Shown one piece after another: positions 2,950-63,006 of a stretch of 64,000 nucleotides of DNA (the first letter of the stretch is position 1; each line of letters starts with the position of its first letter). Below the pieces are notes generated by a model. It had not been told where the DNA came from. It did no database searches and saw nothing but the letters and a program-made list of their open reading frames with translations. The DNA lies in IMG/VR virus record IMGVR_UViG_3300048911_000095, positions 1,188-65,187 of that record, one strand, 5' to 3'. The translations under genes were made by a program, and so were the position numbers. This DNA is from a virus. Its lineage: Duplodnaviria; Caudoviricetes.

Positions 2950-3172
2950 GTTTACCTCATTGTTGGGAACTGCCCAACACCAAAAAAGCAAGGGTGGCAT
3001 CCGGCAAATAGATACCACCCTTTCGGAGGCCGGGACAGCAAGGCAATGACGAAAAGCTGTCCCGGATCTTAATTTGTTCTAAGTAAAAATCTTTCAATGT
3101 TTGCCATTCAATTCCAACCTTTTTCGTGCCAATAAGTATATTCCAAGTTGAAAAGAAAGGTCAATGTTTATT

Positions 3173-3865
3173 TCAGTCCTGTATCAAAGCTTCGTACCAA
3201 TCGATAAGGCCGTTTCTGATCGGTATCGAGACGGCCACATTGGAATTATCCAGATCATCGATTGTCAAAGACTTCGGACCCTCTTTGTCCATCCTGATTC
3301 CGACCTCTTGCAAGAGCCTGATCTTATCGGCCGGGATATAGAACACTCTCTTATACTCGGCAAATTTGACCATGAAACCAGACACCTTGTAACCGCAAAG
3401 TCCTGCGATGTAGCTCTCTGTAGTTTGATGATCTTTGAAGCGTGAGAGAGCTATCCTATCGCCTTTCTCAACCGTCTTGGCATCGAACCGGACTGAGAAC
3501 GTCGATCCGCCACCGGAGAAGTCAACCATCGACCTGACCATGATGATATAAGATCCGGCCTCGGTCTTAGCTACCATGTTCTTACCCTTTGCAGTGCTTG
3601 CTATCTTGTGTGCGTTCTGAGGCGTTGTATAAGCCCACTCATTTTCGTTCCGGTGGACATCGGCCAGACGTTTCAGACGGTAGTAGTCATGAGTGGTTTT
3701 CAATTCGTTCTCAAACTCTTTTCCAAGGTTTGCTTTCGATGCTTTATACTGCGGTTTATTGGCTGTCAGTTCTTGAGCTACGGTCCCGCCGTCTTTTGTC
3801 ATTCGTTTTGCCAGATCAGGCGGGAGATCTGCAAGTGAGTTAAATCTTAGAGCCATCGTTTTCAT
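3173..3865 (-). CDS. RecU-like Holliday junction resolvase (PD-(D/E)XK nuclease)
   Basis: NLGKEFE, VDFSG, FDAK, FKDHQ motif order typical of RecU. Confidence 0.8.
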   Translation of the reverse strand: MKTMALRFNSLADLPPDLAKRMTKDGGTVAQELTANKPQYKASKANLGKEFENELKTTHDYYRLKRLADVHRNENEWAYTTPQNAHKIASTAKGKNMVAKTEAGSYIIMVRSMVDFSGGGSTFSVRFDAKTVEKGDRIALSRFKDHQTTESYIAGLCGYKVSGFMVKFAEYKRVFYIPADKIRLLQEVGIRMDKEGPKSLTIDDLDNSNVAVSIPIRNGLIDWYEALIQD

Positions 3866-3998
3866 CCTCCCATCCGTATGATAATCGAGACTTGCGAGAT
3901 CGCATCCTTTTAATGATCCAGATCAGCATTGATATCCACGTATCAATGATAAGGATCAGCAATAGACATTGCAGAATAAACAAAGCCATATTTCCTCC

Positions 3999-4436
3999 TT
4001 AGAATGGTGCTGGTTCGTCTGGATCTTCCTTGTAGATCTCAGCCCACATTCCATCTCGCAAGTTTGTCATCTTATTAGCAATGTCCTCGGCTGCGATATC
4101 TCTCAGGATTATCCTTGCAATGTCCTCGGCAATAATCAATCCGGCCTTGTGTGGTAATGCATCAACCGTGTTGAGGTAGGTTTCGATGGCATCAGGTGGA
4201 TTGTCCCAATGGCCACCGCTACTCATACCCCAATGCGTGATCGTAATGAGATCGTTGTTGCCAAAATCCAAGGTGTATTCGTCGCCGATGTCGATAAACG
4301 CACCGCAATCCGCGGCCGTTGTGGTTTCCGTGATGTCCTCGGGATCGTATTCATCGCTGAACTCAACCTCTCGATCGGGAAACGCCCGTTTCAGAAAGGC
4401 TAGGATGTTTTCGTTTCGTTGCTTGAATATTTCCAT
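3999..4436 (-). CDS. acidic hypothetical protein
   Basis: Start moved to ATG 4436 after GGAGAA. Confidence 0.55.
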   Translation of the reverse strand: MEIFKQRNENILAFLKRAFPDREVEFSDEYDPEDITETTTAADCGAFIDIGDEYTLDFGNNDLITITHWGMSSGGHWDNPPDAIETYLNTVDALPHKAGLIIAEDIARIILRDIAAEDIANKMTNLRDGMWAEIYKEDPDEPAPF

Positions 4437-4996
4437 CGTTTGTTTTCTCCGTCTGCCTCGTATTTTTTCACTTCCTCCATTATTTGCGGCATCTGTCGGC
4501 CTGAGATCGGCATTATCCATCCGCGGGTTTTGCCGTTCGCTGCGAACCGAACGCAATAAAAATCTCTATCATTTGGTTTCAGCGATACAAAGAATTTCGC
4601 ATTCGGATAGAGCGTTATGACCGCATCGTAATATCTCAGATCAATGGCGCTTTCGCCCTCGAACCAAACGAAAGCCGTTATGCGGTCGATGTTGTCCATG
4701 ACTCGGATTCTCTGTCCGATCTTATTCTTTTTTTCATCGTCCACCCGTTCGATGAACAGAGGCTTGATCGGTTTCGGACAGCCAGGAAACTTTTTAGTTG
4801 CGTCCGTCTTGTCGGCTATTCTGTCCCAGATCGGATCTGTCGCTGGTTTATATTTCCATTGCGGATTTTCGAGAAGCAAGATATGCGCATCAGACATTCC
4901 TTGGCCTCTGGCACCGCAATTTAGAACTTTAACTGGCCGGAACCAATGAGTTTCTTTAACCTCCGGTTTATGATCTTGGATCTGAATTATTTTCAT
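4400..4996 (-). CDS. hypothetical protein
   Basis: 198-aa ORF starting 4 nt after the dnaB stop. Confidence 0.6.
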   Translation of the reverse strand: MKIIQIQDHKPEVKETHWFRPVKVLNCGARGQGMSDAHILLLENPQWKYKPATDPIWDRIADKTDATKKFPGCPKPIKPLFIERVDDEKKNKIGQRIRVMDNIDRITAFVWFEGESAIDLRYYDAVITLYPNAKFFVSLKPNDRDFYCVRFAANGKTRGWIMPISGRQMPQIMEEVKKYEADGENKRWKYSSNETKTS

Positions 4997-5000
4997 TGCC

Positions 5001-6374: not shown

Positions 6375-6449
6375 TTGTTAAAAAGTCGCGGAGAAATTTC
6401 CAGAAAAAATTTAGGTGAAATGAAAAAACGTTGGACGGTTCCCAACATT

Positions 6450-6914
6450 TCAGAACGGAATATGTTGGTTTTTGCAATACTCGCTGCAAAAGATATCCGA
6501 TCCAAATTTCACAGGCTCAAGTGAAAAAGCTTGCTTGCATGATAGACAGGTAAATGTCTCTGTATATCCTTTGCGAATATCAGCAAAAATATCGCGAAGG
6601 GCGTCTACTAACGTTGCACGGCTCGGTGCAACCGGAACCTCGATCTTTTCAGGCATGGCTTTTGGCACGTTGATCTGGTTTTGAGTAATCAGATCGTTGA
6701 TGGCAAATTGCAACGGCGTCGATCCTCCAAATTGTCCATTCCCGTTACATTTAACGCATTTGTAATACAGATCTTTTTGATCTGGCATTAGACCACTGCC
6801 AGCCTTCAAAACTTCCTGCATCTTTTTGCGGATTTGCAAATCTTCTATCAGGCCAGTTCCCTTACATTGGTCGCATTGCTCTGTCCAAGCAACCGTGTAT
6901 TCCCTTTTTGCCAT
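6450..6914 (-). CDS. zinc-finger protein (CxxCxGxG repeats plus CxxC...FCS-x2-C)
   Basis: CDQCKGTG, CVKCNGNG, CLSC, FCSEYC. Confidence 0.65.
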   Translation of the reverse strand: MAKREYTVAWTEQCDQCKGTGLIEDLQIRKKMQEVLKAGSGLMPDQKDLYYKCVKCNGNGQFGGSTPLQFAINDLITQNQINVPKAMPEKIEVPVAPSRATLVDALRDIFADIRKGYTETFTCLSCKQAFSLEPVKFGSDIFCSEYCKNQHIPF

Positions 6915-6926
6915 TGTGTTTTCTCC

Positions 6927-9138: not shown

Positions 9139-10674
9139 TTATGCTTTCTCGTACCGGATACGCTTGCCGTTAACCTCGATGTTAAGCAATGCACCCGAAT
9201 CCGCATCGATCTGCCAACGGCACTTACAACCCGTCTGGAATCGGCCTGTACCGATAGATAGGATTTTCGTGTTGCCGTGCCGACTGCAAACAATGCCCAG
9301 ATCTCCAGGCTCGCCCTTGAAATCTTCCATTGGCTCGGATCGCTTTGGCGGTGTGGCCGGAGCGTTGGTTTCTTCCCAACTCTTTTGTACCTCGCTGCGA
9401 ATGAGATCCGACTTGGCCATAAGGTTCTGAGCCGTCGATTCAATCACCTGTTCGCGGATGGCAGATAAAGCGATACCCTTTTTCTTGGCATCTTCGAGCG
9501 TGTATTGCTTACCGTCAACCTCAACCATACCGGACTGAATAACGTCCTTTAGCGTGTCGTGGAAGTTCTGAACAAATCGAGGCGTGATCTGTGCGTTGCC
9601 ATCCTTGTCTTTCGGTGCTACGTCAACCAGCAACCGCATCTGTTCCTTGATGATCGGCTTGAGATCTTCAAAGCCTTTCGTCTTGCCAATCCCCATCTCA
9701 GAGGCCAATTTGTTGACGCCCTGCATTAGCTCGGTTGTCGTATTGGCCGATAGCTGAAGCTGTTCGCTTTGCTTGATGCCCTCGATAGCCACGGTGTGGT
9801 ATCCGGAAAGCTGTGCAAGCAACTGGCCGTATGATCGGTTAATACCAAACTCTCGATCCATGTACTCGGCAAACGTCTGTGGCTTGCCATCCTTGCCGAT
9901 ACGATAGAGTTTCTTGGCTCTGACCGCATCGAGGATCGCACCCATCCTGTAAGGAGCTGAGTCAAAGGTCGATTTGATCTCGATCAATTCCTTTTCCAAT
10001 TCAGCTTTCTCGGCCTTTTCCTCTTTGGTCAAAGGTGCATCGTCGGCTGGGACTAACGCGGCCTCGGCGATCGCCTGTCGAACCAACGCTTGCTTTTTCT
10101 TGAAGCCTTCAGCCTGTGCCTCAGACGCAAGCACCCAACTCTTGGCAACGTACTTGACGGTTTTCTCTTTGCTGTCGTGGACATACGACACGTTCATCTT
10201 GCCGTTGTCGCCCTGGACGATCTCACCTAACAGGCTCTTATCGCGGTTAAAGACGATCGAGCCAAAGGTTGGATCATTCGTGATTACCGGCTTGCCTTTC
10301 TTGGAGTCGGGTATCGGACCGTTTTCACGCTTTACCTTGGCCAGTAATGACAGATCGGTTGAGTAAAAGAAGTCAGTCGAAAATACAACCTCGCCCTTAT
10401 CGATCATGGCCGTCGCGGTTTCTTCGGTGAATGCATCCGTCTTGAGGATGTCGGCCAGTGCATCTTTACGGCTTACCATTCTGGCCTCGCCTGATCCTTT
10501 CTGATCTAAGCGATAGACCTTTCCGCTCGGCGTGGTTGCTTGGCCTTTTGGAGCTGAACCTTTATCGGCACCGGAAGCTGCTTTTGCTGCCGATTTTGTT
10601 GCTTTGCCGGAATCGGCTTTTTTGTCTTTTGCCGTGCCTTTCTTGCTACCTTTTTCGTCTTTTTCATTTCTCAT
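9139..10674 (-). CDS. large putative DNA-binding protein (Lys/Ala-rich N-terminus, DUF3102-like HTH)
   Basis: Histone-like N-terminus; KKLYR...TFAEYMDREFGINRSYG motif. Confidence 0.55.
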   Translation of the reverse strand: MRNEKDEKGSKKGTAKDKKADSGKATKSAAKAASGADKGSAPKGQATTPSGKVYRLDQKGSGEARMVSRKDALADILKTDAFTEETATAMIDKGEVVFSTDFFYSTDLSLLAKVKRENGPIPDSKKGKPVITNDPTFGSIVFNRDKSLLGEIVQGDNGKMNVSYVHDSKEKTVKYVAKSWVLASEAQAEGFKKKQALVRQAIAEAALVPADDAPLTKEEKAEKAELEKELIEIKSTFDSAPYRMGAILDAVRAKKLYRIGKDGKPQTFAEYMDREFGINRSYGQLLAQLSGYHTVAIEGIKQSEQLQLSANTTTELMQGVNKLASEMGIGKTKGFEDLKPIIKEQMRLLVDVAPKDKDGNAQITPRFVQNFHDTLKDVIQSGMVEVDGKQYTLEDAKKKGIALSAIREQVIESTAQNLMAKSDLIRSEVQKSWEETNAPATPPKRSEPMEDFKGEPGDLGIVCSRHGNTKILSIGTGRFQTGCKCRWQIDADSGALLNIEVNGKRIRYEKA

Positions 10675-10756
10675 TTTTATTCAAGTTCTCCCTTTTTGGT
10701 TTTTGACTAGTCAGTAAAAAGGATGTCGGGAAGTTCCCAACATCCTGTGAGTATTG

Positions 10757-15323: not shown

Positions 15324-15366
15324 TTTGCCTTGTATCCTCCGAGAGTGTTGGGAACCGCCCAACAAG

Positions 15367-20513: not shown

Positions 20514-20909
20514 TTAGCAATTGCAATCAACCTTATGTCCTGCTTCAATTTTGATTCCAGTGCCGTTACATTCAGAGCATTCTGGTCGATGATTCGGACA
20601 AAAGCCGTCTGAATCTATTAACACTTTGCCGTCTGTACGTGTGCAATCAACGTTTGCATCGTTACAGTGGAATTGAACGGATACACGGCGCAATTGTTCG
20701 ATGATTCTTTCGTCCGTGGTCATTCCGTTACCTTCCAAGTCTGATATGTCAAAACCGTAGCTTTCCAGTTTTTCAATAAAGCGATTCTCAGAGTCTATTT
20801 GCCTTTCAGACTGATAATCATCCTCGCTGGTTGGCATTGCCTCACGTCCAAGCGCCAATAGGTAATTCTTGACGCGCATGTTTTCTGCTTTTATTTCATC
20901 TATCGTCAT
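20514..20909 (-). CDS. Cys-rich early protein
   Basis: CPNHRPECSECNGTG and a C-terminal CNC. Confidence 0.6.
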   Translation of the reverse strand: MTIDEIKAENMRVKNYLLALGREAMPTSEDDYQSERQIDSENRFIEKLESYGFDISDLEGNGMTTDERIIEQLRRVSVQFHCNDANVDCTRTDGKVLIDSDGFCPNHRPECSECNGTGIKIEAGHKVDCNC

Positions 20910-21028
20910 TGCTTTTTACCTCTTAAGAGAAAACATGAAAGATTGCCAGTAGAACGCAATATGCGATTTCATCGATTCTTTCATTCGTAAGTCTCTCTTT
21001 TCCCATTTGCCTTTATCCTCTCGTTTTT

Positions 21029-21875
21029 AGTGTCCGATACTCTCATTTGAAACGGTTAGGATGCCGTCTTACGTTTAGCTTCTTACTTGCCTTTCGGCTT
21101 TGAAAGTTTGCGGATCGTGTTCTAACCGTTTCACTATGAAACTATCGAAAATGCCGAATGTTGGACACTTCCCAACATTGTTATCAAAACCCTTTTCTAT
21201 AATCCAAATTGCATGCATATCTAGCATGACTCACTTTGTTCGGAATGTGTTCAACCTCTTAACGCTTGCGGTAAGTTTCTGTCTACTATTCGATGCTAAC
21301 CGGATAATCAATTGTTAACACCACGGATACGAAACTTACTCTTATGTTATTGCAAGATTTGATGCACGTATTGTGCCGTCTGAACTACCAGCTCCAAAGG
21401 CCGATAGGTTGCGAATTATCCATTTTCGCGTTTTACCTTACGAGGATTTCTATCTGTCTGGCTTGCTATGATCTAAAGCAACTACCAACAGACGCTATTA
21501 ACCCTTTCGGAATTTGGTTGCTAACCGCTTTCCTACTTAGGCCATTCCAATTTTCAAACATCCAAGCCTTTCAGTGTTTACGCATCCACAATGCGATTTA
21601 CTTTCCATTCTCAGGAAACACCAAGCTAAGCTTTGAATAGCTTCGAATTTTCAATTTTCCCTTTGATCGTTAACTAACTGTCGAATCTCTATATTTCAAG
21701 TTTTGGCTTTATTTGGTTTGCCAGAGTTTTCAATGATTCAACCTTTTTCGTTTATATCAGGCTTACTCTTTATTTCGTCCTGATCGCTTTGAATACTGAC
21801 CTCAGTTAGCGAAGTGGCTTTATCCTCGCATTGTCCATAACCAAGGTTTTCAAATTGCCTTTCTTCAAAGCAATC
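21029..21875 (-). ncRNA. candidate large structured non-coding RNA (~850 nt), class unassigned
   Basis: No long minus-strand ORF; more than 15 nested helices found by hand, with irregular pairs resolving as G-U only on the minus strand; upstream TTGACA-N18-TAAGAT. Confidence 0.7.
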
Positions 21876-21877
21876 AC

Positions 21878-21907
21878 ATCTTAATCCTTTTTCATTTCTC
21901 TTGTCAA
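21878..21907 (-). promoter_or_regulatory. strong sigma70-like early promoter
   Basis: TTGACA (plus tgtcaa 21902-21907), N18, TAAGAT (plus atctta 21878-21883); AT-rich upstream. Confidence 0.75.
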
Positions 21908-22517
21908 TATCTAATTTTACTATTTTTTAATGTGCCTCTTATCCGAATCAACCAGCCTACCAATTAACACCTTTCCGTCCTCACCTTCCTATCCTTTACC
22001 AGCCTTTCTAACACTTACTCCTTTATATTTATTTCTTTTCTTAAGATTTAATCCTCTCTTCATGTCGTGAAAATGTTACACGGATATCCGTGGAAGGTGA
22101 AAAGTTTAAGCGTGGTATGTTCCACGGATAACCGTGGTAGTTATAGGCCGGTAATTACTGCCTTTCTATGGTTATTAGACACCTGTTTACCTATAGTGAC
22201 TAATCATCCAGGACGCACGGATAACTCATGATTCGATGTTGGATCATTGGATCATTCGGTTAGCCGGATGCGGTAAAAGATCATAGCTGAACACTGGCAA
22301 TTGATCGTCATTTCTGATCGTTGTTTGATCGTTAATCGATAAAGCCTCTCTGCTACTTACTTACTCACTAGGTAAGCCGAAACTACCTCTTTTGCCTGAA
22401 AACCAGCCAAAAAGCCTCTATTCGCACGCAGCAAGGCATATAAACACACTCATAACGGCCAATGTTGGACACTTCCCAACATTTCATTATTCAATGTTTT
22501 ATTGGTTAATAATGCGG

Positions 22518-22546
22518 TTTACTTAGCTAAGTAAGTTTGTTATCGT
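22518..22546 (+). promoter_or_regulatory. leaderless promoter overlapped by a perfect 16-bp palindrome
   Basis: TTTACT-N17-TATCGT-N7-ATG; TTACTTAGCTAAGTAA at 22519-22534. Confidence 0.55.
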
Positions 22547-22553
22547 CTATCTC

Positions 22554-22748
22554 ATGGCCATTACACACAAACAGGTAACAGTGAGGCTTTGCACGTGTGA
22601 GAGATGCGGACACGCTTGGATACCTCGAACACCTATAGCGCCGTCTATTTGTCCGCAATGCAAATCTAAGCTATGGAATACACCAAAGGATAATGATGCA
22701 TTGCCAGACGTGAAACAGATCATTCCAGACGATGACTTTGGCGCATGA
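22554..22748 (+). CDS. small zinc-ribbon protein, putative regulator
   Basis: CERCGHAW-PR...P..CPQCKSKLW. Confidence 0.7.
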   Translation: MAITHKQVTVRLCTCERCGHAWIPRTPIAPSICPQCKSKLWNTPKDNDALPDVKQIIPDDDFGA

Positions 22749-22900
22749 TCGTCTGTCGGATCATTGCCAGCCGGATCAATGATCGATCCAAAAAGGCATC
22801 GAAAAAAAAATCGAAATTGGTATAACCAGGCCCGGATTGGCTCATGTTAAAATCTGAGAAAAAATTTCTAAAAAAAATATAAATGGTTTAAGAATAGGAG

Positions 22901-22955
22901 GGTGGAGTATGGTGCATGAAATGTGGGTGGAGTATGGTGCATGAAATGTGGGTGG
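22901..22955 (+). repeat. 25-bp tandem duplication
   Basis: GGTGGAGTATGGTGCATGAAATGTG twice, plus GGTGG. Confidence 0.9.
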
Positions 22956-23161
22956 TGGTGGTGAATGGAACGGGGCAGATGTTGACGGCTGCTGGGAGTG
23001 GTACTAGCGAGGTTGGTTTGGCGAGGCAGTTTGGGAGTGAGGTGGAAGCGGTGGCGTGGTTGGATGGTGAATTTCGGGCGTTGGTGCCGGTGGATGATCG
23101 TCGGTATTACGGTGGGGTATTTGTGGTGGTGAAGTTGGCTGTTATGGATTGGGATGGTTGA
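22934..23161 (+). CDS. hypothetical protein
   Basis: ATG in the second repeat copy, preceded by GGAG. Confidence 0.45.
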   Translation: MVHEMWVVVVNGTGQMLTAAGSGTSEVGLARQFGSEVEAVAWLDGEFRALVPVDDRRYYGGVFVVVKLAVMDWDG

Positions 23162-25227: not shown

Positions 25228-25635
25228 ATGGCGTTAATTAAGTGTCCAGAGTGCAATGCGTCGGCCAGCGTCTATGCAACGCGCAATGATCCTATCGAGA
25301 TAGACGAGATCACATATCGTCGGTCGAAGAATTACAAATGTCACAATTACGATTGTCAGAACACTTTCACGACCTATGAGATCTTGAAGCCTGATTTCGA
25401 TAAGCTGACCAAGAAGCCGATCGCTTATCATTCCAGCGTTCCGGTAAAGAAGTTCATTGAAAGTCTTGTATCGGATGCTACATTTGTACTGTCCGGCGGG
25501 ATCAAGTTCGAAACCAAGGACGATCTGAAAGTGTTCCTTGAAAAGTTCCTTGCGTTCGCGGAGATGTTTCAGTACAAGAGGCAGTATGTGAGCAAAAAGG
25601 ACGGATCTATAAAAACATCTGGAGTAGAACAATGA
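25228..25635 (+). CDS. Ogr/Delta- or NrdR-like zinc-finger protein, putative transcription regulator
   Basis: KCPEC...YKCHNYDCQNTFTTYE. Confidence 0.55.
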   Translation: MALIKCPECNASASVYATRNDPIEIDEITYRRSKNYKCHNYDCQNTFTTYEILKPDFDKLTKKPIAYHSSVPVKKFIESLVSDATFVLSGGIKFETKDDLKVFLEKFLAFAEMFQYKRQYVSKKDGSIKTSGVEQ

Positions 25636-30800: not shown

Positions 30801-30830
30801 TTGACACGCGAGATCGAGTATGTTTATTCT
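30801..30830 (+). promoter_or_regulatory. sigma70-like promoter
   Basis: TTGACA-N18-TATTCT. Confidence 0.6.
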
Positions 30831-30836
30831 GTCCGT

Positions 30837-30932
30837 GCAAATCGCATTAGATCGTTTCGGGTTTGCATTTCTGTTGTGTGACAACCTCCTTATGCCTGAG
30901 AAAAGCCCCGCGATAACATCAAGGGGTTTTTT
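30837..30932 (+). ncRNA. candidate ~95-nt sRNA with an anti-SD motif
   Basis: Bounded by the promoter and an AAAAGCCCC/GGGGTTTTT terminator-like hairpin; ACCTCCTTA at 30884-30892. Confidence 0.4.
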
Positions 30933-30956
30933 GTTGGGAACTTCCCAACAACGCAA

Positions 30957-30985
30957 TTGGACATTTCCGAAATCATCTGTATAAT
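30957..30985 (+). promoter_or_regulatory. sigma70-like promoter adjacent to a 17-bp palindrome
   Basis: TTGGAC-N17-TATAAT; palindrome at 30933-30949. Confidence 0.6.
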
Positions 30986-31046
30986 CCGAGTTGGTTGCTT
31001 AATGAGCGCAGTTGGTGCATTGAAAAAACCGAGTACCTTTAATTAG

Positions 31047-31076
31047 AAAACGGAAGCTGAAAAGTTTCCGTTTTTT
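31047..31076 (+). terminator. intrinsic terminator
   Basis: AAAACGGAAG/TTTCCGTTTT stem followed by T residues. Confidence 0.6.
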
Positions 31077-31217
31077 ATTGTTTATCATAAAACCGCTTGC
31101 ATTATTTTCTGACTTGTCTTATTTTCCCAATTGTCGGTTATTACTAATCGATCCTTTCGCTCTTAATTCTCTGCGAGAATTGGCCTTGATCTGCGATCAA
31201 GAGAAAAAAGGAAAAAT

Positions 31218-32066
31218 ATGCCAAAAGTAAAACTTTCATTTGCCAGCCCCGATGCAATTCCCGCGGAATTGAAGTCATTTGCTGGCGCAGATAACACGGT
31301 GGAAATATGGACAGGATCACAAGAGACTGTGGCTGCCGAATTGAATCCTGGCTTAGAAGCTAACCGTAATGCCTTGAAAACAGAAAAGGAACAGCTTCAA
31401 AGCAAGTACGACAATTTGCTAAAGTCATCGTCTGAAACATCCCAACAGCTCCAAGAGGCCAATGTGAAGCTTGCAAGCAACACAGGCGTTTCACCGGACG
31501 ATCTAAAGCTCCTCAATACTGTCAAACAGGCGGCGCCTGGAATGAAGCCAGAGGACATCAAAAACACGCTGACAGCCTTTCCTAACGTCAACGCCGAACT
31601 AACCACACTCAAAGCCGATCGGGAGAACGCCGAGATCTTTGGCGCTACAGGATTCAAGAACCAAAAGGTGTTCGTGGATCTGCTTGGCAACAAGACCAAG
31701 AATCCTAATCTGGAAAAGGTTGTGGTCAAAGAGGAAAAGGTTGACGATAAACCTGTGAAAAAGGCTTATGCGAACATCAAACAGGCCGATGGAACGATCA
31801 AAGAAATCGCTTTCGATGAATACGTGAAATCCAATCCTGAATGGAGTCCGTACATGCCGTCACTTTCTGACACCGCTAGTCAAGCTACATGGATTCAGCA
31901 GCAAGGCGGTGGCGCAGGCGGTGGAGGTGGAACGCCACCAACATCTGGCGAAAAAAGTCCGCTCGACTTAGCGATTGAACAGGCTAACCAGAAATCGAAA
32001 GCCATTGTTAATCCGCTTCGTCCGGCCACTCCAACGCCAGCAACTACTGAAGTGAAACAAAATTAA
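31218..32066 (+). CDS. capsid scaffolding protein
   Basis: Coiled coil, Gly/Pro-rich C-terminus, position before the decoration and MCP genes. Confidence 0.7.
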   Translation: MPKVKLSFASPDAIPAELKSFAGADNTVEIWTGSQETVAAELNPGLEANRNALKTEKEQLQSKYDNLLKSSSETSQQLQEANVKLASNTGVSPDDLKLLNTVKQAAPGMKPEDIKNTLTAFPNVNAELTTLKADRENAEIFGATGFKNQKVFVDLLGNKTKNPNLEKVVVKEEKVDDKPVKKAYANIKQADGTIKEIAFDEYVKSNPEWSPYMPSLSDTASQATWIQQQGGGAGGGGGTPPTSGEKSPLDLAIEQANQKSKAIVNPLRPATPTPATTEVKQN

Positions 32067-38768: not shown

Positions 38769-38824
38769 TTGACTAATTTCGCCTTTGTCTGGTATCTTTT
38801 TTGGGAAGTTGGGAACTGCCCAAC
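38769..38824 (+). promoter_or_regulatory. promoter plus 17-bp palindrome upstream of the tape measure gene
   Basis: TTGACT-N18-TATCTT, then GTTGGGAACTGCCCAAC at 38808-38824. Confidence 0.6.
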
Positions 38825-41800: not shown

Positions 41801-43098
41801 GTTTGAATCTTGGTGGATTGTTCGGTGGAAATGCTGGCGGTGGAATATTTAACTTTGGTGCTGGCGCTGGCGGTGGATTTGCGAGTGGTGCGGCTGGTGG
41901 TGGATATCTGCCAAATCCCGCTGGCCTATCGCCTGGTGATTTCTCAGCGATGTTCGGACAGGATTTACTGTCGCCCGGAACGGCTGGCAGTGCGGCCGGT
42001 GGTATCGGTAGTGGTAGCAGTATCCTTTCTGGCCTTGGCGGTGCGTTGCCTATCCTCGGTGCTTCTCTTGGCGCCTCTGTCGGTGGATCTTCGATCAGTG
42101 GACAGATCTTAGGTGGTATCGGTGGAGCTGTCGGTGGTTTGGCCGTAGGAATCGGCACAGGCTTGCTTGGTGGAACCGTTGGCGGTATCGGTGGGTTTGC
42201 TACAGGGCTTGTTGGATTACTCGGGGGAACGTTGGCCGCTACGGGCGTGTTGGCCGGTGTTGCTGGCGTCTTGATCTTAGGTGCCTATTTGCTTGGCAGG
42301 GATAAGGCCAGAAAGCGCGATGAGAAAACGCGTAATCAGGCAATGATCGATGCGTTGGACGCTCTCAACAAACTGATTACCGGCGTCAACAATGACCAGA
42401 TCGACGGAGCGACGGCCTTACAGCAAGCGGCCTCGATCAGAGAGAACTATGTAACCAACATGGGTCAGTTGAAAGACAAGAAAACCCGTGGCATAGCTCT
42501 CAAGGATGTTTCGAGGTTGGATGCTCTTATTGGCCAGTTGAATACAGCCGTCACTAATCAGGTTTCGAGACAGCAACGCCAAGATCTGCTAGTGCCGACA
42601 TTTGCCGAGGGTGGACCTGTCGGATATCAGGATGGATTCGGTAGTGGAACAAGCGATAACTACATGGCCTTTTTCCCGGGTGCAGGACGATCTGCGATGT
42701 ACTCACCGACTGAATACATCCTCGACGCTGAGACAACGCGAAACATCGGTGTCCGCAATCTCAATACGATGCTCTCAAGCAAAGGTCGATCATTCCAGGA
42801 AATGCGGAATCAGATGGTACGGCCACGCTTTGCAACTGGTGGTGGTGTTGGGAGCTTCCCAACAGCCGAGGCCGCAGCTTCATCTGCAACGCAGGGTGGT
42901 CCGCCTGTTATCAATATCACTTTGCAAGTTGGATTGGCAGAGGAAGAATTTGTTAAGGTCATCGCGGCTACGATGAAAAGCAACAACGGTTCTCAGGAAC
43001 AGATCAATGCTATCGTCAAATCTCTTACCAACTCAGGACAGGATTCGACTGTCGCACAACTGGCAGAACTTCTTAAGCCGCGCATCACTGGTAAATAA
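38848..43098 (+). CDS. tail tape measure protein
   Basis: ~1416 aa, helical, Gly-rich hydrophobic C-terminal region, FAEGG...GTSD motif; start moved to ATG 38848. Confidence 0.92.
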   Translation: MSTYRYNVIVDVQINTSGAQGGLGGGSPVKALEKDMDAVEKATAKSATTFGIWERAFKGAFVGSVVGQVTRTLIGGIENVISTTEELIASSIKLAAQQEMTMNAMTLFTGSVVNARQELATLDQLARNTPGLRMLDAEQGATRLAALGFQMKTIEQLQVGLAKQRLISGVTDEGAINRVIVNLQQLRAGSPQIQRDIQQMVLALPSLSIEITKAFGSIDKFKAALRRDPGDAIDKFAASMAQAKAPAGGLQNAVEKLEDAVIDAGRTFGQPLLEPLTNAAEDATKRIYDNKSAIEEWGNSFASVINLLNTLQVPKILQAVATMTALNVQAGVGGSLLLLGQLANLGGATGIGSALTQAGLPAPARDPFGEAYRVDPTLGGHFNPNTSTFGGNLRDLGKTPDQLNVEQLQRKELARQHDLVSSQLYYSQDKKLMQDNFAAQEKSLDTHHRYTTAQEMSFQDRLFKMQQSHLRQQLDFENKAADKQIALADGDKDKIEAINAKRAETISGIDRQIYDNAFEHEKKLSDMRAQMEEERRQAAIKSNELEQRAIQQITDKQTFDIQQKIDKTHEGYDELIRVTNQSYAQLEELTSKHYALELQDQTLTSEQRINVEKEMNLAMQDLAEKNRETIQQIQDKANEEMVRKAQAHANTLSNLYQQSAGGFRSILEAFRPGAGFGTTLPDVGLFSAFGYQGGTDIRDSQRQVQEGTLSVYQAQANILEKIHTLETEQSRTQKDLLDTELSRGTISPKEYEQQKRILELQYSQLQVSQAIEGNLLKESLDLGKINELTKQINEGKKDAVIIDDNRVNAAKDLQAATTEYRSQVLAFADKSVISAEREAAALKTVVELRQKELDALIEIDKDNAMLADQLIFHKNQSDAKVLDFLASQKGITDIVSDAKIGLISTAWDQMDAAIGRVTAKLGVFGSVIKTVLSDLLRLITNKLFQGLFGGGGGFGGGGGGGRGGIFGSLGGNGGLFGGSSGGAGGLNLGGLFGGNAGGGIFNFGAGAGGGFASGAAGGGYLPNPAGLSPGDFSAMFGQDLLSPGTAGSAAGGIGSGSSILSGLGGALPILGASLGASVGGSSISGQILGGIGGAVGGLAVGIGTGLLGGTVGGIGGFATGLVGLLGGTLAATGVLAGVAGVLILGAYLLGRDKARKRDEKTRNQAMIDALDALNKLITGVNNDQIDGATALQQAASIRENYVTNMGQLKDKKTRGIALKDVSRLDALIGQLNTAVTNQVSRQQRQDLLVPTFAEGGPVGYQDGFGSGTSDNYMAFFPGAGRSAMYSPTEYILDAETTRNIGVRNLNTMLSSKGRSFQEMRNQMVRPRFATGGGVGSFPTAEAAASSATQGGPPVINITLQVGLAEEEFVKVIAATMKSNNGSQEQINAIVKSLTNSGQDSTVAQLAELLKPRITGK

Positions 43099-50037: not shown

Positions 50038-50096
50038 TTGACAGGCGCGACGAATCCACACTATTCTTTCTACGTTTAAGTTGGGAGCTACCCAAC
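50038..50096 (+). promoter_or_regulatory. promoter plus 17-bp palindrome heading the accessory virion operon
   Basis: TTGACA-N18-TATTCT; GTTGGGAGCTACCCAAC at 50080-50096. Confidence 0.65.
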
Positions 50097-53242: not shown

Positions 53243-54748
53243 ATGGCTCGCCTTGGTCGTGGACAACCTTTCCCACCGCATATAAAAAGACCGCCTGTAG
53301 TTGGGGCGACTCTTGTTACTACTACGCAGACAATTCAGGCGAAGTCTCGGATCACTGCGACCACGACAAAGACGATCACTGCGAAGTCGGCTATCCGTAA
53401 GACCACAACGCAGACAATTCCCGCTATTTCTCGGATTCGGAAAGTGGTCAACCAGACCATTACGGCAGTTTCGAGACTCAGGGTTACAGCTACAAGGACC
53501 ATCCCTGCCAAGTCTCGAATCCAAGTCACCACGACGCGGACTATTACTGCCAAAACCCGTATTCAAAAGGTGGTCAATAAGACCATCACTGCGATATCCA
53601 GAATTGCAAAGATCGTTGCTCAAACGATTCTTGCCAAGTCGAGGATCACGGCCAGAACAACTCAGACGATTCTTGCCAAATCTCGGATACGGGTTACTGC
53701 GACTAAAACCATTACCGCAAAATCCCGGATCTCGATAATCACAACGAAAACGATTACCGCTATCTCGCGCATTCGCAAGGTAGTTAATCAAACGATCACT
53801 GCTAAGTCTCGGATCACTGCGACCACAACGAAAACGATTCCAGCTAAGTCTCGAATCACCGCGACAACTCTAAAGACCATTCTTGCGAAATCGCGGATTC
53901 AGAAAATAGTTGCCCAAACTATCACTGCGAAGTCGAATATCCTCGTCACGGCTGCGACGAATAAAGTCATCACGGCTATATCACGGATTCGTAAGACAGC
54001 AAGTCAAACCATTACGGCCAAGTCCCGTATCCAGAAAGTAGTATTAGCTACGATCACAGCGAAGTCCCGGATTGCCAAGATCGTTCAGCAAACAATTACT
54101 GCGGTTTCCAGGATCACGGCGTCGACGCCTCGGACCATTACAGCAAAATCACGTATAAGGGTTTCTGCTACTCGAACCATTACTGTCCGGTCAAGGATAG
54201 GCGTTGTTGTCAACAAAACGATCACAGCCATTTCCAGAGTCAGAGCGACAGCAACTAAGACCATAACCTCGATCTCAAAGATCGTGTTGCAGGGTACGAG
54301 CAATGCGTTCATCACAGCCCGATCGAACATTCGTGCAACCACGACAAGGACCATCCCTGCCAAATCACGGATTCAATTGGTGAGATCACAAACGATATCG
54401 GCAAGATCCCGGATTGGAAAGATCGTCAGTAAAAATATAACGGCTATTTCCCGGGTAAGAACAACGGTACTGGCCAGCATATTAAGCAAGGCCAGGATCA
54501 GAAGAATCGTTGTTCAAACGATATCTTCAAAAAGCAGGTTGAGGCGTGTTGCAACGCAGACGATCACGGCTCGATCGCTTGTGTCCGGCACACTAAATAA
54601 AAATATCACGTGTCAATCGAGGATTATTCGTTTTATCAAACCGCCTGTCTACGGTCCGCTTACCAATGATTTCCTTGACAGTGCAGGGTTATTCACGCAA
54701 AATGACTCGGACGATCTGACCACATCGGTAAGAGAGGATTATGGCTGA
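53243..54748 (+). CDS. 14-aa-repeat basic Thr/Ile-rich fibre-like protein
   Basis: 31 repeats of xxxxxxTIxAxSRI. Confidence 0.75.
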   Translation: MARLGRGQPFPPHIKRPPVVGATLVTTTQTIQAKSRITATTTKTITAKSAIRKTTTQTIPAISRIRKVVNQTITAVSRLRVTATRTIPAKSRIQVTTTRTITAKTRIQKVVNKTITAISRIAKIVAQTILAKSRITARTTQTILAKSRIRVTATKTITAKSRISIITTKTITAISRIRKVVNQTITAKSRITATTTKTIPAKSRITATTLKTILAKSRIQKIVAQTITAKSNILVTAATNKVITAISRIRKTASQTITAKSRIQKVVLATITAKSRIAKIVQQTITAVSRITASTPRTITAKSRIRVSATRTITVRSRIGVVVNKTITAISRVRATATKTITSISKIVLQGTSNAFITARSNIRATTTRTIPAKSRIQLVRSQTISARSRIGKIVSKNITAISRVRTTVLASILSKARIRRIVVQTISSKSRLRRVATQTITARSLVSGTLNKNITCQSRIIRFIKPPVYGPLTNDFLDSAGLFTQNDSDDLTTSVREDYG

Positions 54749-55079: not shown

Positions 55080-55117
55080 TTGTTGGGTACTTCCCAACTT
55101 TCAATAGGAGATCTTTA

Positions 55118-57930: not shown

Positions 57931-58449
57931 ATGAAAAAGGTTTTGATGTTACTGGCTTTGCTCTTGCTGGCTGTACTGGTTGAGAAACCGCAAACGATTT
58001 CTAATTGTCCGGCGGGAACTGTGTGCTTTACACAGGAACAGGCTAACCGGATCAATAAGGCTCTCGATGAACTGGTAGCCTTGCGAGATGCCTATAATAA
58101 ATTACTGGTCGAACGTGGAACGTCCGATGCAAAAGCTTCCGCATCTCAGGCCGTCATCGACACACAAAATGAGGTTATCGCTCTCGATGTGAAGATGTTC
58201 GCCACCTATGAGCAAGTGGTAGCTCTCTATCAAAAGACGCTGGCCGTGTACGCGGATCTCGTACAGAAGATGGCCGATAAGATCAATAAGCCTAAGTCGG
58301 CTTGGCAAAAGATTCTCGATGCTGCAAAGGTTGTTATTGAAGTGTTGGCCGGAATAGCCATTGGCAGGGCAATAGGTCAAGTGGTTTTCGATCCAGATGT
58401 TGGGAAGTTCCCAACTATGAGGTTTGAATTATTAGGGAGTGAGATATGA
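57931..58449 (+). CDS. spanin-like secreted coiled-coil protein
   Basis: Signal-like N-terminus, coiled coil; no canonical lipobox. Confidence 0.4.
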   Translation: MKKVLMLLALLLLAVLVEKPQTISNCPAGTVCFTQEQANRINKALDELVALRDAYNKLLVERGTSDAKASASQAVIDTQNEVIALDVKMFATYEQVVALYQKTLAVYADLVQKMADKINKPKSAWQKILDAAKVVIEVLAGIAIGRAIGQVVFDPDVGKFPTMRFELLGSEI

Positions 58450-58616: not shown

Positions 58617-58771
58617 CATTTTTGTTAATCGCTTGCAATTCGCTGGTCGATTAACTTATCATCGTTACCGCTATGTGGCAAAAAGAAGTTACAAGGCGTC
58701 TGTTATATCCCATATTCCCGCTTATCGCGTGGGCGTATGATCTGAAAACTACATTTCCAGGAGTGAAAATT

Positions 58772-59134
58772 ATGATTCGAGTCAAAGATGATAATCCAGA
58801 TGTTCCCGTGATCGTGGATCTCGGCGATGGTGTGGATGCTGAGGGATCGGTTGTCCCTGCCAGCGATGGTTCGTACAAGGCAACGCCGTATGCTTCGGAT
58901 AACGAAAGTTCGGTATCGTTGCTAGATGACGGCAACGGTGGTCAGACGGCACATTTCGGTTCGCCGAATGCAGACGGTTCGCCTTCGACGGCCAACCTGA
59001 CGGCACAGGTTATCGAAACCGAAACCGGTAACGTTGTTGGGAACCTCCCGACAGTCTCGGTTGAGGTATCGCATGGTGCGGCGGTGTCGTTTCCCAATGC
59101 GACTACTAAATTGGGTGATCTCACTGATAGTTAA
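58772..59134 (+). CDS. acidic beta-rich (Ig-like) protein with its own promoter
   Basis: TTGCAA-N18-TATCAT at 58633-58662; CAGGAG RBS; start moved to ATG 58772. Confidence 0.55.
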   Translation: MIRVKDDNPDVPVIVDLGDGVDAEGSVVPASDGSYKATPYASDNESSVSLLDDGNGGQTAHFGSPNADGSPSTANLTAQVIETETGNVVGNLPTVSVEVSHGAAVSFPNATTKLGDLTDS

Positions 59135-59174
59135 GTTGAAAAGCTGGCTGTTGGGTTGAGTTTTCTTAGAGCAG

Positions 59175-59203
59175 AAAGAGACAGTTTAGGCTGTCTCTTT
59201 TTT
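59175..59203. terminator. probable bidirectional terminator where the arms converge
   Basis: AAAGAGACAG-TTTAGG-CTGTCTCTTT followed by a T run. Confidence 0.7.
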
Positions 59204-59376
59204 ATTTTTCGATGCTACGAATCTGGTGTAGTAGATATCCGGAAAGCGTTCCATGTGCCGGTCCACTTGAAGTAAGGCGGTTGCGAGAGCCTTGATCTCG
59301 GATGGTGGAATGATCTTTGGTGCGTCATCATCCTCTACCTGTTTCTTTTTCGGCTTGCGTTTTGCTGGCATGGTTA

Positions 59377-59630: not shown

Positions 59631-59632
59631 AA

Positions 59633-59923
59633 TCAGTCTGGCCGTCCGGCTTCATCCCATCTTTGATCTATGTACTCGGTCAAAGCTTCGTTCTTCTCGA
59701 TGAACCACATCGGCAACGTCATTGACACGATACCGCTATCCTCATTCTCGAAAAGGATCTGCGATTTCGGTATCCAGATCTTCAGGTTGCCGTCATCCAG
59801 CAGCTTTGCCTTTTCGCTTTCTACCTTGATGACGGCCTTGGGGATCTCCAGGAAGAAAGGTTGATTACCCTGTGCGTATTGTCTCTGTCGTGCGTAGTAT
59901 TTTTGTCGTGTTGCTTTGCTCAT
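59633..59923 (-). CDS. hypothetical protein
   Basis: ESEKAKLL...IWIPKSQI motif. Confidence 0.65.
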   Translation of the reverse strand: MSKATRQKYYARQRQYAQGNQPFFLEIPKAVIKVESEKAKLLDDGNLKIWIPKSQILFENEDSGIVSMTLPMWFIEKNEALTEYIDQRWDEAGRPD

Positions 59924-60151
59924 TTATCTTTTCAAAGGTAGTAAGGCCAGATCGTTCATTTGTTGAATCCATTCTTGGATCTCTGGCATTTTCATAATCG
60001 AAAGAAAGGCTATCCGATCCGCGGGATGGCCATTTGGAGATAGAAATTCTTCGGCATGGATAAGAGCCGATCCGAGATTCACTAACAATGTTCCGTTAGG
60101 TTCAAGCGGATCGCCCTTTCTGACAATCGACATCGTTGTTCGTTTTTTCAT
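59924..60151 (-). CDS. hypothetical protein
   Basis: ATGA overlap with the methyltransferase stop. Confidence 0.55.
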   Translation of the reverse strand: MKKRTTMSIVRKGDPLEPNGTLLVNLGSALIHAEEFLSPNGHPADRIAFLSIMKMPEIQEWIQQMNDLALLPLKR

Positions 60152-61362
60152 CGAAATAACCTCTCTTGCGGTATTCCGCCAGGTGCTTTTAATTCGTCCA
60201 AACGCTTTAAGGAACCTATGTAATAGTTCTCAAGCAATTCAGAACCAATATAGGATCGTCCGAGTCGCCATGCACAAACAGCCGTGGAACCAGTTCCCAT
60301 GAAAGGATCATAGACGATACCGCCGACAGGACATCCAGCCTTAATCATCCTTTCAGTCAGATCGGTAGGAAAGGCCGCGAAATGTTGAACCTCTCGCTTT
60401 TCACCATTGGCCGTATTGACATTCCAAGTTGTGGTTGAAGGCGTTTCCGATGGCCATTCGAAATTTAATTCGTAGGTGTCCCATGTTGTTCGAATATTTC
60501 GTTGGCTATCATCGCCCTCGATCACAGTGTTACCGGCTCGGTTATAAGGCACCGAGATATTAGTTTCGCTGTCGTGTAACATCTTTGTTACCCGTGGCTG
60601 AATTGTCTGAGCCTTTTCCAGTTGTTGCTCGAAGTAATATTTCTTCGATTTGGTGAAAAAGAATACTGTCTCATTATCGATGGTAAACCGATCCTTTGCA
60701 GAGGACGGCATGGTCGAACGTTTCCACCAATTACACCAATTACGTTGTATGAATCCAAGTTCGTCGGTCATTACAATCGCCAGCCTTGCAGGAATATTCA
60801 TCAACGATTTTTGTTTAAGTTTAATGTCTTTCGGCAGTAATTTATCGATCACGAACTTTCCACCGCCTCGAACCTTTCCCCCGAGGGATTCAGTTGCACC
60901 GTTACGATTAGAGTTTCGAGCGCCGGCGTATGAGTCCGCGATGTTCACCCACAGCGTTCCGGTCTTTTTGAGAACACGGTGACATTCCGCAAAGATCTGA
61001 ACAAGGTGTTTGATGTAATCCCGGAAGTCAGGTTCCAAACCTAGCTCACCTTTCCATGCTTTGCATTTAATGCACCATTCGGACCTGGTCCTCCGATCTT
61101 TATAACCGACGTATCGTGATCCTTGCCCTTCGGTGTAGGTGATATCGGTAGTTCCCTGTCCACCAGAGCCGTTCGGCCGGGATGTGTATTCTTCCTGCCA
61201 TTCATGCTCACAATCAGCTTTGGCATCCCAGATCTGAGGCTCAGTTCCGTAACATCGGAGGGCATAGTAAGGCGGCGAAGTGATAATGCAGTCGATCGAG
61301 TTATCAGGGAACTTCTTTAACGTGGTCAGGCAAGGCTCATTCCAGATTTTATCTAGTTCCAT
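60148..61362 (-). CDS. N4-cytosine/N6-adenine DNA methyltransferase (beta class)
   Basis: ITSPPY catalytic motif N-terminal to DPFMGTGST. Confidence 0.9.
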   Translation of the reverse strand: MELDKIWNEPCLTTLKKFPDNSIDCIITSPPYYALRCYGTEPQIWDAKADCEHEWQEEYTSRPNGSGGQGTTDITYTEGQGSRYVGYKDRRTRSEWCIKCKAWKGELGLEPDFRDYIKHLVQIFAECHRVLKKTGTLWVNIADSYAGARNSNRNGATESLGGKVRGGGKFVIDKLLPKDIKLKQKSLMNIPARLAIVMTDELGFIQRNWCNWWKRSTMPSSAKDRFTIDNETVFFFTKSKKYYFEQQLEKAQTIQPRVTKMLHDSETNISVPYNRAGNTVIEGDDSQRNIRTTWDTYELNFEWPSETPSTTTWNVNTANGEKREVQHFAAFPTDLTERMIKAGCPVGGIVYDPFMGTGSTAVCAWRLGRSYIGSELLENYYIGSLKRLDELKAPGGIPQERLFR

Positions 61363-61521
61363 ATTGTTTACTTTTCTTCTCTACAAACTTTTGGTATTCC
61401 TTGAGGATATCCCGCCGTGCTTGCTCATGAACCGGAAGCTTTGCAAATTCCTCTATGAATTCATCGACCGTCCTTTGCAACTTCGCACGTTGTAATTTAA
61501 CTCTTACCGTGATCTCATTTT

Positions 61522-62979
61522 TCATAGTTCTTCATCGCAACATTTGATTGTCAGCATCCGGTACATGATCGCTCGGATTACAGTTGTCGTAACCGCATTT
61601 CCGGTTGTCTTATAGCGTTGCGTGGCAGAGATCTTTTTGATCTTGCCATCGGGAAAGCGGCCGTATTCCGTCCAATTGTCCTCGAATCCTTGAAGCCTCT
61701 CACATTCTATTTCGGTAAGCCGTCTGAGGCGATCGCCGTCATAGATCCCGGGTTGTTCTTGAGCCGTGACAGCAAAGGATGGATCACCATCCTCTTTGAC
61801 CTGTCGGCCATTCTGAGACTTCTTTTTCCGTTCAGGTGTTTGAACCGATATGGCTATCACGGCCTGACCAGATCCGTCCTCTCTTGCCCTTGCTGGCAAC
61901 GTTGGTGCAAGATCACCTTTGACCTCGCGAAAGCCCTTGCCGTCATTATGCGTCCGGAGTGTGCCAACCCTGATATCGTCGGCAGTTCTCATGCCCTTTT
62001 TCGTGCTGTCATTGACTATCTGTCGCTTCATGCCTGATTCCATATCGGACGGTGCAGCGCCTTTGTGATAGTTCGCATCCAGCGAGAAACTTATATCTTG
62101 GCCAACAATGGTAGTTCCACCGTCAAATTGACATTGCGGACCTTGGTTTTTTGTTGAGATCGTACCAGATACACATCCGATTGATCCCGATCGATCAACC
62201 TCTGGATCGCCGTCTCCGAAAGGAAATACCGTTCGGCTGGGCATTCTTCCAAAATGTCCGATAATGAACACACGTTCGCGGTTCTGGGGAACTCCGTGGA
62301 ATTGCGAGTTAACACAAGTCCATTCCACGCAATACCCGATTTCTGTAAGCGCAAGGATGATTCGCTTAAGAGCGGTTCCGTCCTGGCTAGAAAAAAGTCC
62401 GGGGACGTTTTCGAGAAAAAAGTGTTTAACGGCTTTCCCCATTTTTTTCCTGGCAACCAGAATCCGAACGATTTCATAAAAGAGGCTACCTCGAAACCCG
62501 TCAAGTCCTGCCCCAGCTCCAGCAATTGAAAAATCCTGGCAAGGAAATCCACCGCACAGAAGATCAAAGTCGGGGATATCTTCTGGAATAAGTCTGGTTG
62601 CGTCTCCAAAGTTTCGATGCTGTGGAAAGTGATACTGCGTGATGGCGTCTGCAAACTGGTCGATCTCGGAGTATCCGACACAAGAGGCGTGTTGTCGCCG
62701 CGGTTTCCGCCTCTTAACGTCCTTACCTGTCCGTCTGTGTGAACTCGGGTTTTCGTTTTGCCCTTGTTCCTCGCTCCGTTGCTGTCCACTATCAGAGGCA
62801 CCCTGTGACCGACTCCCCCTTGATGGTTTCCTGTCTTTCCTACGGACAGCAGCGTTGGGCTTAGTTCCTTGGCTATCCGGTTGTCCGTTTTGCGTCCTTT
62901 CTTCTTGGTATTTTTCATAAGCTTGTTTAATGCCGACAGTAAAGCCGGATATGCCGCAATACATTTCAAAATAGTTCAT
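61522..62979 (-). CDS. C5-cytosine DNA methyltransferase
   Basis: Motif I EMYCGISG, II SEID, IV GFPCQ, VI LENV, VIII QNRERVF, IX RRLT...LQGF, X GNAV. Confidence 0.92.
   Translation of the reverse strand: MNYFEMYCGISGFTVGIKQAYEKYQEERTQNGQPDSQGTKPNAAVRRKDRKPSRGSRSQGASDSGQQRSEEQGQNENPSSHRRTGKDVKRRKPRRQHASCVGYSEIDQFADAITQYHFPQHRNFGDATRLIPEDIPDFDLLCGGFPCQDFSIAGAGAGLDGFRGSLFYEIVRILVARKKMGKAVKHFFLENVPGLFSSQDGTALKRIILALTEIGYCVEWTCVNSQFHGVPQNRERVFIIGHFGRMPSRTVFPFGDGDPEVDRSGSIGCVSGTISTKNQGPQCQFDGGTTIVGQDISFSLDANYHKGAAPSDMESGMKRQIVNDSTKKGMRTADDIRVGTLRTHNDGKGFREVKGDLAPTLPARAREDGSGQAVIAISVQTPERKKKSQNGRQVKEDGDPSFAVTAQEQPGIYDGDRLRRLTEIECERLQGFEDNWTEYGRFPDGKIKKISATQRYKTTGNAVTTTVIRAIMYRMLTIKCCDEEL
62091..62969 (-). 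CDS. overlapping alternative-frame protein inside the C5 methyltransferase gene
   Basis: 292 open codons on the same strand; SLSDILE...RYFLS and TRD-like SPTL / RTLRGG...PLV motifs. Confidence 0.55.
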   Translation of the reverse strand: MKCIAAYPALLSALNKLMKNTKKKGRKTDNRIAKELSPTLLSVGKTGNHQGGVGHRVPLIVDSNGARNKGKTKTRVHTDGQVRTLRGGNRGDNTPLVSDTPRSTSLQTPSRSITFHSIETLETQPDLFQKISPTLIFCAVDFLARIFQLLELGQDLTGFEVASFMKSFGFWLPGKKWGKPLNTFFSKTSPDFFLARTEPLLSESSLRLQKSGIAWNGLVLTRNSTEFPRTANVCSLSDILEECPAERYFLSETAIQRLIDRDQSDVYLVRSQQKTKVRNVNLTVELPLLAKI

Positions 62980-63006
62980 ATTGTTTTTGTTGGGTGGTTC
63001 CCAACT

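Follow-up and report, generated by a model that had tools for sequence, protein, structure and literature searches.

The virus record IMGVR_UViG_3300048911_000095 of IMG/VR is 65,187 bp long and carries a 127-bp terminal repeat, so that the assembly is circular; the stretch analysed here, to which we refer as the window, comprises 64,000 nucleotides (bases 1188-65187 of the record). Its genes run leftward from ~20909 to 1 and then on round the circle to ~59186, and rightward from 22554 to ~59134, with a 1.6-kb non-coding hub separating the two arms. Recognisable genes encode DnaB, RecU-like and Gp157-like proteins, a helicase, two DNA methyltransferases, the small and large terminase and an endolysin, and most other proteins of the window gave no match. 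Since no known phage has a large terminase more than 31% identical to the one encoded here, the virus is an orphan siphophage, and its DNA matched no known phage. The subject of this analysis is a short palindrome, TGTTGGGAASTTCCCAACA, of which copies are scattered over the whole genome.

When the window was searched with GTTGGGAASTTCCCAAC at up to three mismatches, 15 copies were recovered, all of them at the coordinates that an earlier, sequence-only reading of the same DNA had given, compared with a mean of 0.19 expected from shuffled sequences (maximum 2). A weight-matrix scan placed 14 of these sites at 26-33 bits and the one at 9364 at 18.7 bits, with none in between; as this last value is about the top score found among 20 shuffles, 9364 is a marginal copy beside 14 strong ones. 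The palindrome described in the earlier reading as 17 bp long is real, but a T at -1 or an A at +1 is present in 22 of the 30 half-sites, and the full element is therefore a 19-bp palindrome, with C or G as its central base at every site. The 1187 bases of the genome that lie outside the window held no further copy. Lone half-sites were not enriched genome-wide (one extra copy), and a search for other dispersed repeats or a shared promoter motif turned up none except ribosome-binding-site contexts. The copies are as follows.

2962-2978: palindrome copy directly after a minus-strand terminator (3022-2990), ending 12 nt before ATG 2949
6430-6446: palindrome copy between gene 6450-6914, whose stop lies 3 nt before it, and dnaB, which follows after 55 nt
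9364-9380: marginal copy (18.7 bits) within a 511-aa gene, 225 nt from its 3' end
10725-10741: palindrome copy in the gap before gene 10674
15347-15363: palindrome copy 3 nt past the upstream stop and 23 nt before ATG 15323
21160-21176: left hub copy, within the 23-bp sequence AATGTTGGACACTTCCCAACATT
22464-22480: right hub copy, within the same 23-bp sequence AATGTTGGACACTTCCCAACATT, 73 nt before gene 22554
30933-30949: perfect copy directly after terminator 30903-30932, 8 nt upstream of a -35 box
38808-38824: copy centred at ~+12 of the predicted promoter TTGACT-18-TATCTT (38769-38798), 23 nt before 38848
42847-42863: copy within the tape-measure gene, 250 nt short of the 3' end
50080-50096: copy centred at ~+15 of the predicted promoter TTGACA-18-TATTCT (50038-50067), 19 nt before ATG 50116
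55082-55098: copy that follows the upstream stop after 2 nt and ends 19 nt short of ATG 55118 of the endolysin gene
58399-58415: perfect copy within the final 17 codons of gene 57931-58449
59036-59052: copy inside the plus-strand open reading frame (ORF) 58673-59134, 98 nt from its end
62989-63005: copy that fills the gap of 27 nt ahead of ATG 62979 of the C5 methyltransferase gene

The copies are placed with a strong bias towards gaps between genes: 11 of the 15 are intergenic in a window whose non-coding share is 9.3% (P = 4e-9), and the remaining four all fall within the final 50-250 nt of the gene that contains them. ATG 38848 is the most likely start of the tape-measure gene, which makes the site at 38808 intergenic. 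A start codon follows 9-73 nt after the end of ten sites, and five were counted at 9-23 nt when the geometry of P2 Ogr sites, discussed below, was tested. The positions described in the earlier reading were borne out, with copies ending 9-23 nt before the starts at 2949, 15323, 55118 and 62979, and others occupying the gaps before dnaB and gene 10674. Three copies (15347, 55082 and 62989) take up the few bases that separate a stop codon from the next ribosome-binding site or start codon, and the two hub copies, identical over 23 bp, bracket the hub. Among the copies inside genes, that at 58399 lies 30 nt before ATG 58446 of a small overlapping hydrophobic ORF, which was read by eye and is below the 60-aa listing.

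Several copies stand in a defined relation to promoters and terminators. The copies at 38808 and 50080, which the earlier reading had rightly set just past transcription starts (the promoters being predicted by a tool), occupy a lacO-like position downstream of strong predicted sigma-70 promoters. The copy at 30933, also correctly noted as adjoining a -35 box, is centred at ~-51 from a predicted promoter for head genes, TGGACA-16-TATAAT (30958-30985), and the centre of 22464 lies at ~-48 from a -10-like hexamer, AATAAT. Both 2962 and 30933 come immediately after the strong intrinsic terminators of short promoter-terminator cassettes. As to the copies themselves, a G+C-rich hairpin followed by a T-run on the sense strand was found at 10725 (where an extended 12-pair stem precedes TTTTT), at 6430 (where the copy and its flanks form an 11-pair hairpin, then a T-run, on the minus strand, which is the sense strand here) and at 38808, and weakly at 22464, the rest having no T-run; the copies as a set thus do not match intrinsic terminators, although 10725, 6430 and 38808 may double as site and terminator stem.

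Three such short promoter-to-terminator cassettes are present (30801-31077; 3164-2980 on the minus strand), two of which precede a palindrome copy. Two of the short cassette transcripts contain a CCUCC stretch resembling an anti-Shine-Dalgarno sequence, and the transcript 3128-2982 also contains a 12-codon ORF. The hub (20909-22554) has no convincing ORF and an extreme GC skew, and contains iteron-like repeats CACGGATAWCCGTGG at ~21321, 22079, 22124 and 22217, a GATC cluster at 22230-22340 and a leftward promoter, TTGACA-18-TAAGAT, at 21907-21878; it looks like a replication origin.

The pattern of variation among the copies bears on whether the element is read as DNA or as RNA. The outer five bases of each arm (GTTGG/CCAAC) form the invariant part, GTTGG-N7-CCAAC being exact in 13 of the 15 sites, and the inner three bases and the centre vary. 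Each departure from the consensus is confined to one arm, with no compensatory change in any of the 15 copies, and at least one perfect 8-base half-site, GTTGGGAA, is kept in 14 of them. The dyad symmetry includes positions 8 and 10, which are unable to pair across a one-base loop, and the perfect half shows no bias with respect to the direction of transcription, being the 5' half at seven sites and the 3' half at five. Variation of this kind is more readily explained by a protein that binds DNA as a dimer than by an RNA hairpin, and we consider it somewhat probable that the 19-bp palindrome is a DNA operator for a phage-encoded regulator.

An RNA hairpin had been put forward in the sequence-only reading as the alternative, on the ground that arm substitutions give G-U pairs on the sense strand. 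This holds at 6430, 10725 and 59036, where single transitions produce such pairs, but the argument is selective: 22464, which has the same sequence as 21160 but lies on the opposite arm of the genome, gives an A-C mismatch on its own sense strand, and the comparison of sense with antisense fold energies splits 8 to 7. Were the element to work as RNA, it would be a transcribed hairpin with a 5-8 bp stem that punctuates polycistronic mRNAs, and it may then stabilise a 5' or 3' end, signal processing, terminate transcription weakly or make it pause, or offer a phage protein a nut-like loading site. The ten sites before start codons would lie in 5' untranslated regions or between cistrons, and in two predicted transcripts the hairpin would lie at +4 and +7, a 5' location in which it protects mRNA; the T-runs after 10725, 6430 and 38808, which make these three copies score as terminators, leave further room for a role in RNA, and the four largest differences between sense and antisense fold energies all favour the sense strand.

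Protein-read hairpins such as boxB and the MS2 operator usually combine a conserved loop with a covarying stem. Here the reverse is seen, the centre that would form the loop being the most variable part and the stem ends invariant, without covariation, and Rfam gave no match; a hairpin of the boxB or MS2-operator type was rejected on these grounds. A scan for tRNAs was blank as well. A purely structural hairpin, for its part, would not need one single sequence at 15 places, and the copies at 2962 and 30933 would often go untranscribed because they sit just past strong terminators. Weakened by the failure of G-U pairing at 22464, the 8 to 7 split in folding and the blank Rfam result, the RNA hairpin appears to us possible but unlikely as an account of the element.

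The motif is private to this genome. GTTGG-N7-CCAAC was absent from 1.7 Mb of loci gathered as relatives of the terminase, and the exact motif occurred in only two other records of IMG/VR, at one copy each, as expected of chance matches and without enrichment. In 401 Pseudomonadota genomes searched with up to one mismatch there were four matches, one per genome, compared with five for a reversed control. A similar density in bacterial DNA, which would speak against a phage regulon, was thus not seen in these 401 genomes, and this sample, which need not include the host, lends no support to a host factor either. Degenerate forms of the motif, and of a second motif described below, gave single matches among the IMG/VR matches listed.

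The terminase has relatives that are 46-71% identical, on contigs of 64-69 kb; scans of IMG/VR gave nothing closer than 38%, and a scan of genome contigs gave matches that were only 23-29% identical. A metagenome scan listed at least two relatives, on short contigs that were read here, L090 and L091. L091, whose large terminase is 51% identical, has a 19-bp palindrome of its own, AGTAAGT-N5-ACTTACT, at 2346-2364 and 4276-4294; the two copies have oppositely oriented centres and overlap the stop codons of terL and of the portal gene, respectively, and the second is syntenic with the copy at 30933. L090 (63% identity) has overlapping palindromes of an AAATGCA type just past a terminator at the same place. 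These two short contigs, very little sequence in all, suggest that the junctions are shared between lineages and the palindrome at them is private to each, and the presence of different palindromes at matching junctions suggests in turn that the sites evolve together with a phage factor. An IMG/VR record with two copies of the L091 type was judged unconvincing.

Two side observations concern relatives. The leader of gene 31218 (31160-31220) is conserved at the DNA level in L090 (4140-4200), including a hairpin, CTTGATCTGCGATCAAG, just before the ribosome-binding site. In several relatives (proteins P0017, P0021, P0022, P0025, P0029 and P0033, and L091 2-2347) the large terminases are 780-990 aa long with intein/Hint domains, which the window's own terminase does not have.

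Dispersed regulatory sites have been described in other phages, and in this context the sequence-only reading had compared the palindrome with the stoperators of mycobacteriophages L5 and Bxb1, while cautioning that these are asymmetric. Stoperators are reportedly many sites for one repressor, spread through short intergenic gaps genome-wide, as the palindrome is, and they are thought to block elongating RNA polymerase. They differ in being asymmetric 13-14 bp sites that are oriented with transcription, and in being read by the helix-turn-helix (HTH) repressor of a temperate phage. We searched with Pfam the proteins of both leftward-transcribed blocks, of the right-arm genes upstream of the terminase and of the 1187 bases outside the window, and no HTH, ParB, integrase or transposase domain was found in this set, from which divergent proteins could escape; the absence of a visible CI-type HTH repressor, remarked on earlier, is thus upheld for the proteins searched. 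With a symmetric site, perfect halves split 7 to 5, and no HTH, integrase or partition gene found among the proteins searched, a stoperator system of the Cluster A type was rejected. In phiC31, conserved inverted repeats are said to be bound by the repressor c and reportedly number about 18 copies of a 17-bp inverted repeat, intergenic and in some cases by promoters or terminators, although phiC31 is an actinophage of temperate habit whose repressor gene is known.

Among published cases, the closest is the 17-bp palindrome TGTTCGGNNNCCGAACA of the Cluster O mycobacteriophages (Cresawn et al. 2015, PMC4351075), for which the authors proposed a dimeric binder and which has no known function; a symmetric precedent therefore exists, on which point the earlier comparison falls short. 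In both cases a dyad-symmetric repeat of 17-19 bp, with invariant arms and a variable centre, recurs throughout the genome of a siphophage, the two genomes being similar in size. Most copies occupy short intergenic gaps and some lie within genes, and neither the host nor other phages have the repeat (for the window phage, as far as the genomes searched go); even the arms are alike, TGTTCGG in Cluster O and TGTTGGG here. The Cluster O phages differ in that Corndog has 34 copies as against 15, in that the spacer is 3 bp rather than a 1-bp centre, and in that the candidate binders are predicted DNA-binding proteins and not a zinc ribbon; the phages are unrelated and their hosts differ.

Copies of the Cluster O palindrome have recombined with each other, giving rise to insertions and deletions (PMC4351075), and the spacing of the present copies, at 0.6-8.5 kb round the whole circle and often at module borders, would likewise suit a function other than the control of transcription, whether as recombination hot spots, as targets for partition or condensation of the ParB/KorB type, as a tiny mobile palindrome that a nuclease or transposase has spread, or as the target of a host protein. 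A similar layout is seen in plasmid RK2, a replicon of ~60 kb in which a dozen copies of short palindromes (KorB OB / KorA OA), lying at varied distances from promoters, serve one global regulator (PMC11790492). KorB, however, is a CTP-dependent clamp of the ParB family (PMC11790492), and no ParB-like protein was detected in the searched set, nor any transposase, integrase or HNH domain. A ParB/KorB-type array was rejected accordingly, there being no ParBc match in the proteins searched (which included the structural genes only in part); the N6/N4 methyltransferase has no ParB domain and matches a methylase domain only. The intergenic bias is also unlike those ParB arrays that run through genes, and none of the 401 bacterial genomes was enriched for the motif. 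The motif found at these junctions in a relative is a different one, which makes a conserved host factor less likely, and overall we regard these other functions as improbable.

If the palindrome is an operator for a phage-encoded regulator, the question is which protein would bind it. Of the two zinc-finger proteins proposed in the sequence-only reading, gp22554 showed no similarity to any DNA-binding family, and its comparison with P2 Ogr, run as a control, was blank. The other, gp25228, did resemble a class of proteins that bind dyad-symmetric DNA.

25228-25635, plus strand: candidate binder gp25228, whose N-terminal zinc ribbon, CX2C-X28-CX4C, is of the Ogr/Delta or NrdR type

This protein of 135 aa, encoded among the right-arm genes upstream of the terminase, has a finger that reads CX2C-X28-CX4C-QNTFTTYE, followed by a C-terminal region of ~85 aa without any match. 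In a single BLASTP comparison with Ogr of phage P2 (record AF063097) it was 31% identical over 59 residues (E = 2e-6), with all four cysteines and the TF-TYE residues matching and a 6-residue insertion in gp25228. The sole NCBIfam match was the Ogr model PRK09678 (E = 1.3e-3), PHROG 603, 'transcriptional regulator', matched at E = 1.6e-3, and Pfam returned zinc ribbons of the NrdR and Ogr_Delta types below threshold. A single-sequence structure model was confident for residues 1-53 only; its best match among solved structures was the zinc ribbon of NrdR (7p37, 9fzf), and its neighbours in BFVD bear NrdR-like or Ogr/Delta-type names. In the public gene call (P0122, 83 aa) the protein begins at residue 53, so that the zinc finger is missing.

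The repressor NrdR binds to palindromic boxes that overlap promoters. Its boxes, unlike the present sites, are tandem pairs found at nrd promoters only, and an ATP-cone domain is absent from gp25228. The sites through which P2 Ogr acts are TGT-N12-ACA dyads located near -55 of late promoters (PMC3931495), and the likeness to the Ogr/Delta/B proteins of P2, P4 and 186 extends from the four-cysteine finger and TF-TYE of gp25228 to the element itself, which reads TGT-N13-ACA, a TGT...ACA dyad of nearly equal length, and to the copy at 30933, centred near -51 of a head-gene promoter. There are differences on each of these counts. The cysteine spacing is X28 rather than X22, gp25228 has ~85 extra residues and falls below the curated family cut-offs, and the sites are spaced by N13 instead of N12. 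There are 15 sites as against four, the class being known in P2-like phages only as an activator of four late promoters, and most of the 15 lie downstream of promoters or between cistrons, where such an activator could not work. Sites of the Ogr type proper (TGT-N12-ACA near -55 with a weak -35) were therefore rejected, with only 30933 and 22464 at the right distance from a -10-like hexamer, and 30933 adjoins a near-consensus -35, unlike the weak -35 of Ogr late promoters. The link between gp25228 and the palindrome is suggestive only, and that this protein is the regulator that binds the candidate operator seems to us doubtful, although it is the best candidate.

In the mechanism that we propose, a regulator, possibly gp25228, would bind the TGTTGGGAASTTCCCAACA duplex as a symmetric dimer or a larger assembly. 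Bound at ~+12 and ~+15 of the tape-measure and accessory-operon promoters, it would block initiation or promoter escape; at the sites where a stop codon or terminator is closely followed by a ribosome-binding site, it would block read-through transcription; and near -50, at 30933 and 22464, it could serve as an activator, as Ogr does. Through all sites together, one protein would time or silence every transcription module. The sequence-only reading had likewise proposed that one dimeric factor controls nearly all operons; the variation among the sites does fit a dimeric binder, but its control of nearly all operons is an inference, only two sites occupying a classical operator position.

Several results weigh against this mechanism, in addition to the sense-strand fold differences and the T-runs set out above. 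Only two of the 15 sites are in a classical repressor position and only two come close to the -55 position that Ogr uses. The proteins searched yielded neither an integrase nor any other lysogeny gene, which leaves a silencing role without an obvious setting. As for gp25228, its scores miss those of the curated families (11.6 bits for Ogr_Delta, where the Pfam cut-off is 26.3, and 19.2 bits for PRK09678, where that of NCBIfam is 116), its match to the NrdR zinc ribbon (Z 5.9, root-mean-square deviation 1.7 A over 44 residues) is below the level that the tool deems trustworthy, and no homologue of it was present in two large protein libraries, one of them of 1.8 billion representatives. The most specific version of the mechanism, in which a zinc ribbon of the Ogr/Delta or NrdR type has turned into a genome-wide regulator that represses or blocks transcription at most of the 15 palindromes and activates it at one or two, the protein and its site changing together in each lineage, is thus offered tentatively and as a fairly unlikely one.

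Three further features of the genome lie outside these questions. Between the converging plus- and minus-strand gene blocks, 59173-59202 forms a 13-pair hairpin with T-runs on both sides, which is probably a bidirectional terminator and which places the point of convergence near 59180, not 58450. Gene 53243-54748 consists of ~30 tandem 42-nt (14-aa) repeats, and a 25-bp sequence, GGGTGGAGTATGGTGCATGAAATGT, is perfectly duplicated in tandem at 22900-22949, at the start of ORF 22916-23161.

Dispersed phage palindromes of no known function recur, Cluster O being one published case, and the present finding is a further case of this known but poorly understood kind. It is set apart by its strong intergenic bias, by the lack of any HTH or ParB protein found and by its zinc-ribbon candidate. 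If gp25228 does bind the palindrome, it would show how all transcription modules of a phage can be timed or silenced by one small regulator, and the known roles of the Ogr family would be extended; if, moreover, the sites and their factor evolve together, this phage family would be a good system in which to study how DNA recognition changes.

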